Assembly: GCF_988242995.1 (NCBI RefSeq)
Contig: NZ_OZ547043.1
DNA length: 64,000 nt
Direction: 5' to 3' (one strand)
Position numbers and translations under genes: made by a program. Positions within the stretch are counted from its first letter, which is position 1. Every line of letters starts with the position of its first letter. The notes below the pieces were generated by a model, which searched no databases, had not been told where the DNA came from, and was given only the letters and a program-made list of their open reading frames with translations. Below are positions 38,647 through 40,185 of the stretch, in pieces.

Positions 38647-38722
38647 GCCCGGATAGCTCAGTCGGTAGAGCAGGGGATTGAAAATCCCCGTGTCCTTGGT
38701 TCGATTCCGAGTCCGGGCACCA
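38647..38722 (+). tRNA. pheV: tRNA-Phe (anticodon GAA)
   Basis: 76-nt sequence GCCCGGATAGCTCAGTCGGTAGAGCAGGGGATTGAAAATCCCCGTGTCCTTGGTTCGATTCCGAGTCCGGGCACCA with full cloverleaf and CCA end. Confidence 0.97.
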
Positions 38723-38734
38723 AATTCATATCAA

Positions 38735-38762
38735 CGGACCTCCACGGAGGTCCGTTTTTCGT
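38735..38762 (+). terminator. Hairpin/terminator downstream of tRNA-Phe
   Basis: acggacctccacggaggtccgt followed by TTTTT. Confidence 0.55.
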
Positions 38763-38919
38763 TTCAGAACACCATGATTTAAGTGTTCTTCCTCCAAATC
38801 AATTCTACCGAACTCAACCAGATTCCCCCCACATCAACCCCATTGTGTGGGTATAATTGCGGGTATACCTCAGTTCGACAGAATTTGTACCCTCTTTAAC
38901 GCATTCAGAAGGCTGAAAT

Positions 38920-40185
38920 ATGGCACTGACTGACGCAAAAATTCGGGCTGCAAAGCCCACTGACAAGGCGTATAAACTCACTGACGGAGCTGGCATGCTC
39001 ATGCTGGTACATCCCAATAGTTCCCGTTACTGGCGTCTCCGTTATCGTATTTTGGGTAAGGAGAAGACTCTTGCACTTGGTGTGTATCCAGAAGTTTCTC
39101 TCTCCGAAGCTCGTGCAAAACGGGATGAGGCCCGAAAACTAATTTCGGCGGGGATTGACCCTTGCGAACAGAAAAGAGCTAAAAAAGTAGCCCCTGGTTT
39201 ACAACTCTCTTTTGAACATATTGCACGACGCTGGCATGCCAGTAATAAACAATGGACACAATCACACAGCGATAAAGTACTCAAAAGCCTCGAGACGCAT
39301 GTTTTCCCTTTTATCGGCAACCGAGATATCACAAAACTCAACACTCCGGACCTGCTTATCCCAGTTCGCGCTGCAGAGGCTAAACAGATTTATGAAATCG
39401 CCAGTCGTCTGCAGCAAAGGATATCTGCTGTAATGCGTTATGCCGTACAGTCTGGCATCATCAGATATAATCCTGCTCTGGATATGGCTGGCGCATTGAC
39501 CACTGTAAAACGCCAGCATCGCCCCGCTCTTGATCTTTCACGTCTTCCTGAACTTCTGTCCCGTATTGGCAGTTATAAAGGTCAGCCTGTTACCCGACTT
39601 GCTGTTATGCTGAATTTACTGGTTTTTATTCGCTCCAGTGAACTCAGATATGCCCGCTGGTCAGAAATTGATATTGAAAATGCCATGTGGACTATTCCTG
39701 CTGAACGCGAGCCTCTGCCAGGCGTAAATTTCTCGCACCGGGGTTCCAAGATGAGAACTCCGCATCTTGTTCCCCTCAGCAAGCAGGCTGTAGCTATACT
39801 TACAGAACTTCAGACATGGGCTGGTGAAAATGGTCTGGTCTTTACGGGAGCACATGACCCGCATAAACCAATCAGTGAAAACACCGTAAATAAAGCCCTC
39901 AGAGTTATGGGGTATGACACAACCCAGGATATCTGTGGGCATGGATTCAGGACGATGGCATGTAGCGCGTTAATAGAATCAGGATTGTGGTCCCGTGATG
40001 CAGTGGAACGTCAGATGAGTCATCAGGAGCGTAATGGTGTACGTGCTGCTTACATTCATAAAGCAGAACATCTGGGAGAACGCCGACTGATGCTACAGTG
40101 GTGGGCCGATTTTCTGAATGCAAACAGAGAAAGATTTATCAGTCCATTTGAATATGCAAAGATTAATAATCCGTTAAAACAGTAA
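38920..40185 (+). CDS. int: P4/CP4-type tyrosine integrase (island integrase)
   Basis: 421-aa ORF with integrase-type N-terminus (MALTDAKIRAAKPTDKAYKLTDGAGMLMLVHPNSSRYWRLRY) and catalytic-domain R...HGFR...Y features; immediately 3' of a tRNA gene. Confidence 0.92.
   Translation: MALTDAKIRAAKPTDKAYKLTDGAGMLMLVHPNSSRYWRLRYRILGKEKTLALGVYPEVSLSEARAKRDEARKLISAGIDPCEQKRAKKVAPGLQLSFEHIARRWHASNKQWTQSHSDKVLKSLETHVFPFIGNRDITKLNTPDLLIPVRAAEAKQIYEIASRLQQRISAVMRYAVQSGIIRYNPALDMAGALTTVKRQHRPALDLSRLPELLSRIGSYKGQPVTRLAVMLNLLVFIRSSELRYARWSEIDIENAMWTIPAEREPLPGVNFSHRGSKMRTPHLVPLSKQAVAILTELQTWAGENGLVFTGAHDPHKPISENTVNKALRVMGYDTTQDICGHGFRTMACSALIESGLWSRDAVERQMSHQERNGVRAAYIHKAEHLGERRLMLQWWADFLNANRERFISPFEYAKINNPLKQ

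Follow-up and report, generated by a model that had tools for sequence, protein, structure and literature searches.

We conclude with high confidence that positions 38647-40185 of the window, by which we mean the whole 64,000-nt stretch of DNA analysed here, are the left (attL) end of an E. coli genomic island of the GI-pheV class, put in place by P4-type integration and present in a copy that is most likely immobilised. The initial annotation had read this region as a genomic island integrated at pheV; the break in K-12 collinearity, the P4-type integrase, the accessory cargo and the attR of a sister island all agree with that reading. Comparison with other genomes demonstrates, at the level of sequence, the anatomy of the junction, its family membership and an attL/attR/attB triad. 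A junction of this kind at pheV is an already known and ordinary feature in the literature, and it marks the boundary between core and accessory DNA at a classic integration hotspot for virulence and fitness genes of pathogenic E. coli. The positions and the description in the initial annotation are correct, and the matches are not due to chance. From left to right, the junction is made up of the following features.

37823-38542, + strand: yqgA, the last core gene, here a pseudogene with a 10-bp deletion near 38341
38647-38722, + strand: pheV, tRNA-Phe(GAA), intact (ARAGORN, Rfam and identity to K-12)
38700-38722, + strand: attL core, the 23-nt tRNA 3' end TTCGATTCCGAGTCCGGGCACCA (from the end of K-12 homology and the sister attR)
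38733-38765, + strand: island-borne rho-independent terminator for the tRNA, a 10-pair stem followed by a T run
38846-38869, + strand: two tandem 12-nt repeats, TGTGGGTATAAT and TGCGGGTATACC, candidate arm-type Int sites of the P' arm (repeat search)
38883-38895, - strand: AAGAGGGTACAAA, an arm repeat in inverted orientation, located past the tandem pair and before the int ATG at 38920 (motif scan)
38920-40185, + strand: intP4, a P4-type tyrosine integrase of 421 aa, intact (Pfam and identity to P4 Int)

The core side of the junction is unambiguous. The tRNA-Phe(GAA) at 38647-38722 on the + strand is the single tRNA that ARAGORN finds in the 64-kb window; it is also matched by the Rfam tRNA model (68.3 bits, E 3.9e-13) and, by direct reading, its 76 nt are the same as those of K-12 pheV, base for base. 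The K-12 MG1655 stretch 3' mltC-nupG-speC-yqgH-yqgA-pheV aligns to window 33291-38722 at 98.97% identity, and collinearity breaks off at 38722, the final base of pheV; the K-12 DNA that lies past pheV (the yghD-glcA segment) has no match anywhere in the window. The initial annotation had placed the end of core synteny at yqgA and tRNA-Phe, and the alignment ends exactly there. The window has no exact match among the genomes of the collection, where the best reach 99.8% at the junction and 98.3% over 39001-64000. The closest collinear relative is PS_131_S11 (99.8% over window 37800-42500 and 98.0% over 39001-64000), in which the 20 kb upstream of the junction carry core genes from galP to speC. 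Alignment with K-12 yqgA places the deletion in the window's copy at K-12 CATCCAGTTA, with the frame stopping at 38365; in PS_131_S11 the gene is annotated as 'frameshifted'. Immediately past the tRNA, the terminator at 38733-38765 is unchanged in all seven of the int alleles and contexts aligned. K-12 has another hairpin at this position, and the island terminator takes its place. An Rfam scan of 36000-64000 returned the tRNA and the known 'IS102' entry of the flu leader, and nothing else.

The assignment of the tRNA 3' end as the attL core, also made by the initial annotation, is borne out by a sister island in CFSAN061763, which is collinear with window 38001-62367 at 95-99% identity and lacks the ISEc22 element that interrupts the island in the window. 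This sister island terminates 24.1 kb from pheV in a 22-bp attR, TTCGATTCCGAGTCCGG-CACCA, which is the 23-mer of the tRNA 3' end less one G. Beyond it the K-12 post-pheV sequence resumes, beginning CTAATTCTTAAGAACCCGCCCACAAGGCGGG, and a 48-nt stretch past attR, CTAATTCTTAAGAACCCGCCCACAAGGCGGGTTTTTGCTTTTGGATCT, is an exact match to the K-12 sequence 3' of pheV. The distal order is thus DUF4942 gene, tandem 12-mers, a spacer of about 60 nt, attR and K-12 flank. On this comparison the attL/attR/attB triad is complete: the island is a 24.1-kb insertion between the tRNA 3' end and its displaced copy. A repeat of the tRNA 3' end, which the initial annotation had proposed to look for, is found in the CFSAN061763 sister island and is missing from both the window and PS_131_S11. 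In the window no second copy turned up with the 23-mer at up to four edits, a 17-mer at up to two or a 14-mer at up to one, and fuzzy patterns, both ungapped and gapped, found no attR in 95 kb around the junction of PS_131_S11. We considered that an attR might never have existed in this island and rejected this, as the sister island carries one.

A second line of evidence comes from tandem islands. In LH10-b-1, APEC O2-211 and MS8345, TTTCATTCCGAGTCCGGGCACCA stands in place of pheV ahead of the same P' arm and int. In LH10-b-1, TTTCATTCCGAGTCCGGGCACCA serves as attR for a different island, over 50 kb long, that terminates in a canonical yee module, a complete DUF4942 gene and ParDE; for APEC O2-211 and MS8345, 400 nt of flank were compared, and the left-flank sequence is the same as in LH10-b-1. 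Since these tandem junctions keep the P' arm and int without pheV, the sequence from 38723 rightward moves with int and not with the chromosome. A 19-nt block, ATTCCGAGTCCGGGCACCA (window 38704-38722), is common to the attL core and the tandem-island junctions, and by analogy with P4 the crossover probably falls inside it.

These features place the island in the GI-pheV class with intP4 described by Nhu et al. (2024, PLoS Genet; PMC11537424), which takes in PAI-CFT073-pheV, the GI-pheV of EC958 and SpLE3/OI-122 of Sakai. In that class, intP4 beside pheV is the sole conserved gene, the islands are built of modules, flu and yee among them, together with IS elements, and the attR types (Table 1) include TTCGATTCCGAGTCCGG-CACCA and TTTCATTCCGATTCCGGGCACCA (PMC11537424). 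The comparison with known pheV islands that the initial annotation had recommended gives a good fit. The window island lies directly 3' of pheV, past yqgA, in non-K-12 DNA, its intP4 adjoins the tRNA, and it shares the modular make-up of IS elements and flu and yee modules; the CFSAN061763 attR is identical to one of the two main GI-pheV attR types, and the attL core with its 19-nt block agrees with the attR types of Table 1. It differs in an int allele 7-10% off the intP4.1-4.5 representatives and in a distal end cut by ISEc22. The attR of 19-23 bp that about two-thirds of GI-pheV islands carry was found neither in the window nor in any of the four inspected relatives that share its ISEc22 junction. 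The published definition allows islands without attR: 14 of 41 (34%) have no recognisable attR, and these are smaller, with a mean of 23.5 kb (PMC11537424). At about 24 kb, the window island belongs to this small size class.

The DNA between the tRNA and the integrase resembles the arm of a P4-like attP. The only exact matches to TGYGGGTATA in the 64 kb are the tandem pair at 38846-38869, and of the 13 occurrences of GGGTAYA on both strands of the window, three fall within the 197-nt P' arm, where about 0.04 would be expected per 197 nt. On the other side, the P arm of CFSAN061763 carries tandem 12-mers, TGCGGGTACAAA and AGAGGGTACATC, 59-83 nt left of attR. In the annotated P4 attP (NC_001609.1), a tandem pair of 12-nt arm repeats lies 54-77 nt to the left of the core, a second tandem pair is placed between core and int, and one inverted copy stands at the int start; the repeats in the window's P' arm have the position and spacing of the annotated P4 arm repeats. 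We aligned the P' arm from seven int alleles and contexts, including tandem copies that start at the end of another island; from the tRNA or left flank to the int start, mean column identity is 94%, with two non-homologous left flanks included, compared with 90-93% for int. The arm repeats are among the conserved columns, and the second 12-mer differs at two positions across alleles. To the left of the 19-bp-type attR of the LH10-b-1 tandem island, where a ParDE module intervenes, there is no GGGTAYA within 300 nt, and the assignment of the P arm therefore rests on one island type. By analogy with P4, we suggest that the GGGTAYA repeats are bound by Int. The first arm repeat also holds a perfect TATAAT (38852-38857) without a good -35, which may be the -10 box of int; a simple promoter scan gave no sigma-70 consensus site upstream of int on the + strand.

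The integrase itself is a conventional member of its family. The reading frame begins 197 nt beyond the tRNA, in line with the initial annotation of a P4/CP4-type integrase less than 200 bp away, and the product carries the three domains of P4-type integrases, an N-terminal Arm-DNA-bind_3 (DUF4102; 8e-28), a central Phage_int_M (8e-28) and a C-terminal catalytic Phage_integrase (8e-18), all above gathering scores. A tblastn comparison with phage records matches it to phage P4 Int at 55% identity along 97% of the length (E 8e-151), with 54-55% identity across comparisons. The R-K-HxxR-H-Y catalytic set is present as R238, K277, H341, R344, H368 and Y378, invariant across P4 Int and three aligned E. 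coli alleles, and the PDB sequences it matches come from 'CP4-like' integrases, covering their N-terminal and central domains. Site-specific recombination by this protein at a tRNA 3' end is predicted from comparative evidence, the attL/attR/attB triad. At the nucleotide level the gene is 100% identical to those of PS_131_S11 and LH10-b-1 and 99.7% identical to that of CFSAN061763; its identity to the pheV-adjacent int of CFT073, H10407, APEC O1, O157, O104:H4 and IAI39 is 90-95%. For the five alleles taken as stand-ins for intP4.1-4.5 (CFT073, H10407, APEC O1, O157 and O104:H4), identity is 90-93% (7-10% divergence), where the assignments of CFT073, H10407, O157/Sakai and the 55989-type O104:H4 allele are from PMC11537424 and that of APEC O1 is our own. 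The published alleles differ by 4-6% among themselves (PMC11537424). The window int is found at 99% identity or above in 157 of 5426 complete genomes; it is a minority allele of the same intP4 family, already annotated in RefSeq genomes.

An intact integrase in an island that has probably lost its attR raises the possibility that the gene is kept for some other role, be it action in trans on islands at pheV and pheU, tandem capture or regulation. The gene is full-length and without stops in all 11 alleles compared, the query is mostly covered in 3295 of the 5426 genomes, int is retained although many GI-pheV islands are without attR, and tandem islands occur at the same attL. However, an intact int could just mean that attR was lost recently, and for tandem capture the integrase of the incoming island suffices; we consider such a role distinctly unlikely. 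A more specific proposal, unlikely as it stands, is that the int of a stranded island is kept intact by work in trans, capturing or releasing other Phe-tRNA islands at pheV or pheU, as the tandem arrays of LH10-b-1, APEC O2-211 and MS8345 might suggest, or by autoregulation through GGGTAYA at the -10 box, and that it represents a sixth, unnamed intP4 lineage tied to the compact flu-yee island.

Downstream of int, the initial annotation had expected mobile-element or CP4-prophage-like cargo, and IS elements together with flu and yee modules, not in K-12 at this site, are what the window contains. The cargo, up to the end of the window, is as follows.

40754-41004, + strand: IS110-family transposase remnant (PS_131_S11 annotation transferred to the window)
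40977-43195, - strand: IS66-family element, with tnpC 41015-42400, tnpB 42450-42797 and tnpA 42794-43195 (Pfam, sequence)
43529-45217, - strand: two DUF7828/zinc-ribbon genes and a YagK/YfjJ ('inovirus Gp2 family') gene (Pfam, annotation)
46928-47134, + strand: AlpA-family HTH protein of 68 aa, candidate excisionase/recombination directionality factor (Phage_AlpA, 5.4e-08)
49971-54124, + strand: flu module, a YeeP-like GTPase and the Ag43 autotransporter (MMR_HSR1, ESPR, AIDA, AC_1, Autotransporter)
54239-62367, + strand: yee module (Pfam, annotation of PS_131_S11)
62229-62367, + strand: 5' fragment of the DUF4942 gene, the last island gene (alignment to the island ends of LH10-b-1 and CFSAN061763)
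62368-64000, - strand: ISEc22 (IS66 family), transposase 62404-63942, extending past the window (sequence, annotation)

The IS66 element at 40977 matches DDE_Tnp_IS66, TnpB_IS66 and HTH_Tnp_1 in Pfam and has a terminal GTAAGCG repeat near 40977. An Hha-family gene is also among the cargo. The AlpA-like protein has a weak match to the TIGR01764 'excise' model (22.7 bits, under the 28.8-bit cutoff). In the flu module, the Ag43 gene probably starts at 51278, with a GATC-rich switch region at 51023-51259 and a leader matched by the Rfam IS102 RNA (74.6 bits). The yee module runs in the order 840-aa protein, IrmA, DUF932, antirestriction, RadC/YeeS, YeeT, CbeA/CbtA, DUF5983, DUF957 and DUF4942 fragment, and the 840-aa protein is without a Pfam or NCBIfam match. 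A 353-aa ORF at 59899-60960 was considered as a fusion protein and rejected, being a frameshifted upstream pseudogene in frame with a GTG-started yeeU/cbeA. The pap, sat, iha, iuc, fec, efa1 and T6SS cargo is absent from the island in the window.

At its far end the island is broken. The DUF4942 gene is cut at 62367/62368, where the GTAAGCG terminal repeat of ISEc22 starts (62368), and the alignment to the canonical ends in LH10-b-1 and CFSAN061763 breaks at window 62367. One could suppose that ISEc22 is a simple insertion into a complete and excisable island whose attR lies just past the window, at about 65.5 kb: the window stops inside ISEc22 with the far side out of view, the sister attR is only 540-560 bp beyond the insertion point, and both the integrase and the AlpA-like gene are intact. 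Against this, the exact 62367/62368 junction occurs at 100% identity over 500 bp in 30 complete genomes, and in the four inspected (PS_131_S11, E700025, JNE21-009 and E200086) ISEc22 is followed by the spacer upstream of kpsF, with an extra IS3 element between them in E200086 and with neither attR nor K-12 flank in any of the four. We regard a complete island as very improbable. By direct comparison, 969 bp are missing in PS_131_S11, namely the remainder of DUF4942 together with the P arm, attR and K-12 flank, and the order past the island is ISEc22, a group-2 kps capsule cluster, gsp type II secretion genes, sslE and glc. Judging from these relatives, attR in the window's lineage was most likely deleted by an ISEc22-associated event. 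Because the P arm, attR and K-12 flank are gone in the inspected genomes that share the junction, the copy in the window is most likely immobile and still carries an intact int along with an AlpA-like candidate excisionase. A search for a repeat of the tRNA 3' end within 150 kb, put forward by the initial annotation as a possible refutation, would probably come out negative here and still leave the island reading standing, since attR was likely deleted in this lineage.

Overall, we favour a pathway in which a P4-type tyrosine integrase would have catalysed recombination between the 3' end of pheV and an attP carried by the element, this attP containing a duplicate of the final 19-23 nt of tRNA-Phe. 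Integration of this kind would leave an intact tRNA, and the terminator, the arm-type sites and int downstream would be the element's own. The intact form would look like that in CFSAN061763, about 24 kb long and ending in the P-arm 12-mers, a 22-nt attR and then K-12 flank. ISEc22 would later have cut the DUF4942 gene, and with the loss of the P arm, attR and K-12 flank the copy would have become immobilised. The remaining attL, with its whole pheV, may still be able to take further islands in tandem. These consequences for mobility are inferred from the comparisons above; with attR probably lost, the copy in the window should be stable.

The practical value of this analysis lies mainly in correct annotation. 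The kps capsule locus falls outside the integrase-bounded element. We considered the kps cluster as a part of the island and rejected it: in CFSAN061763, the DUF4942 gene is separated from kpsF by attR and K-12 flank, and because kps is beyond attR there, it represents a separate insertion. The candidate GGGTAYA arm-type sites and the minority int allele add minor detail to what has been published.

The likeness to satellite phage P4 is confined to the integration module. Both have the same three integrase domains and catalytic residues, a tRNA 3' end as attP core, int at 150-200 nt from the core, tandem arm repeats on each side and an inverted copy; P4 targets leuX (a Leu tRNA) and the window island a Phe tRNA, and the arm repeat is GGGGGCA in P4 and GGGTAYA here. 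Among the scanned ORFs and in the annotation of PS_131_S11, the P4 genes for replication, capsid size and helper exploitation have no counterpart. That the element is a P4-like satellite or cryptic prophage still mobilisable by a helper phage, and not a plain genomic island, is barely credible: the P4-type integrase and att layout, an AlpA/Vis-family gene, a YagK/YfjJ 'inovirus Gp2 family' gene and the modules in common with the K-12 cryptic prophage CP4-44 would suit such an element, but no recognised family for the P4 alpha primase/helicase, Psu, Sid or Delta was present among the 20 Pfam-scanned ORFs or in the PS_131_S11 annotation, capsid and packaging genes are absent, and the cargo consists of adhesin, toxin-antitoxin and antirestriction genes and IS elements. 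Relaxase, coupling protein and type IV secretion genes were likewise absent from 38723-64000 and from the 24-kb sister island. By the scanned ORFs and the annotation of the relative, then, the genomic island appears to be neither a P4-like satellite nor an ICE.

Two other known elements bear comparison with the window island. The she island of Shigella flexneri 2a lies at pheV with a P4-like int, and Int and Rox are known from it. Its far side bears an imperfectly repeated pheV 3' end, and it has an Ag43-like sap, yee-type ORFs and an AlpA-family excision factor; it carries the virulence genes sigA, pic and set, and its excision has been shown experimentally. This island is also mentioned in PMC11537424. 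The window island is without the sigA, pic and set of she. The other is CP4-44, which in K-12 is not known to have an integrase or a tRNA junction; unlike CP4-44, the element in the window keeps an integrase and sits at a tRNA. The flu and yee modules are common to both (PMC11537424, Discussion), and in CP4-44 (yeeP-flu-yeeR...cbeA-cbtA-yeeW) they follow the same order as in the window: GTPase, Ag43, IrmA, DUF932, antirestriction, RadC, YeeT, CbeA/CbtA and DUF5983.

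IS110-family transposase fragments occupy two positions:

40754-41004 of the window, fragment directly after the P4-type integrase gene
24037-24219 of segment L013 (CFSAN061763, which carries the sister island), fragment directly past attR, adjoining kpsF in sister strains

These two positions, together with the state of E. coli LH10-b-1, where the DNA between fragments of this kind is down to a single IS66, suggest that IS-mediated deletions repeatedly prune the island. The locus in that strain is itself composite:

NZ_CP100530.1, about 806800-882000 (segments L004 and L005), two tandem islands at pheV

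The upstream island exceeds 50 kb (a lower bound, as the segment read stops short of its pheV-proximal start), carries sugar-utilisation and YadA-like cargo, and ends in a complete yee/DUF4942/ParDE module followed by its own attR. Next come the window-type integrase gene, which retains hardly any cargo (just the IS66, flanked by two IS110 fragments), and then the kps capsule cluster.

The position of kps can be placed from the pheV-yghD spacer, compared between segment L003 (5443-5590) and L013, and with segment L002 (21172-22228). Only the first 48 nt of the K-12 spacer are common to the kps-positive strains; the cluster is inserted immediately past them, and homology with K-12 is not regained until the yghD stop codon. 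The genes gspD-K, between yghE and yghF, are also absent from K-12.

Directly upstream of pheV, the core gene is damaged:

37823-38542, yqgA pseudogene with a 10-bp deletion near 38341

The frame is shifted because of this deletion, the missing K-12 bases being CATCCAGTTA. PS_131_S11, a close collinear relative, shares the defect, and yqgA is intact in CFSAN061763, CFT073 and others.

Three features were considered within the cargo:

51023-51259, Rfam 'IS102 RNA' match (74.6 bits), between the GTPase and Ag43 genes
54239-56761, 840-aa ORF between Ag43 and IrmA
59899-60960, 353-aa ORF from the mechanical ORF listing

GATC sites (cgatcgataaaacaggtatcgatcgttactatcgatcg) cluster in the GTPase-Ag43 intergenic region, and the 'IS102 RNA' interval is presumably the Dam/OxyR phase-variation switch of agn43/flu. 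The 840-aa ORF has no family match in Pfam or NCBIfam; relatives label it mostly 'hypothetical protein' and in some cases 'YeeR family protein'. The 353-aa ORF was rejected as a real fusion: its upstream part is an 'antitoxin of TA stability system' pseudogene with a frameshift, which by chance reads through in frame into cbeA/yeeU, a gene with a GTG start.
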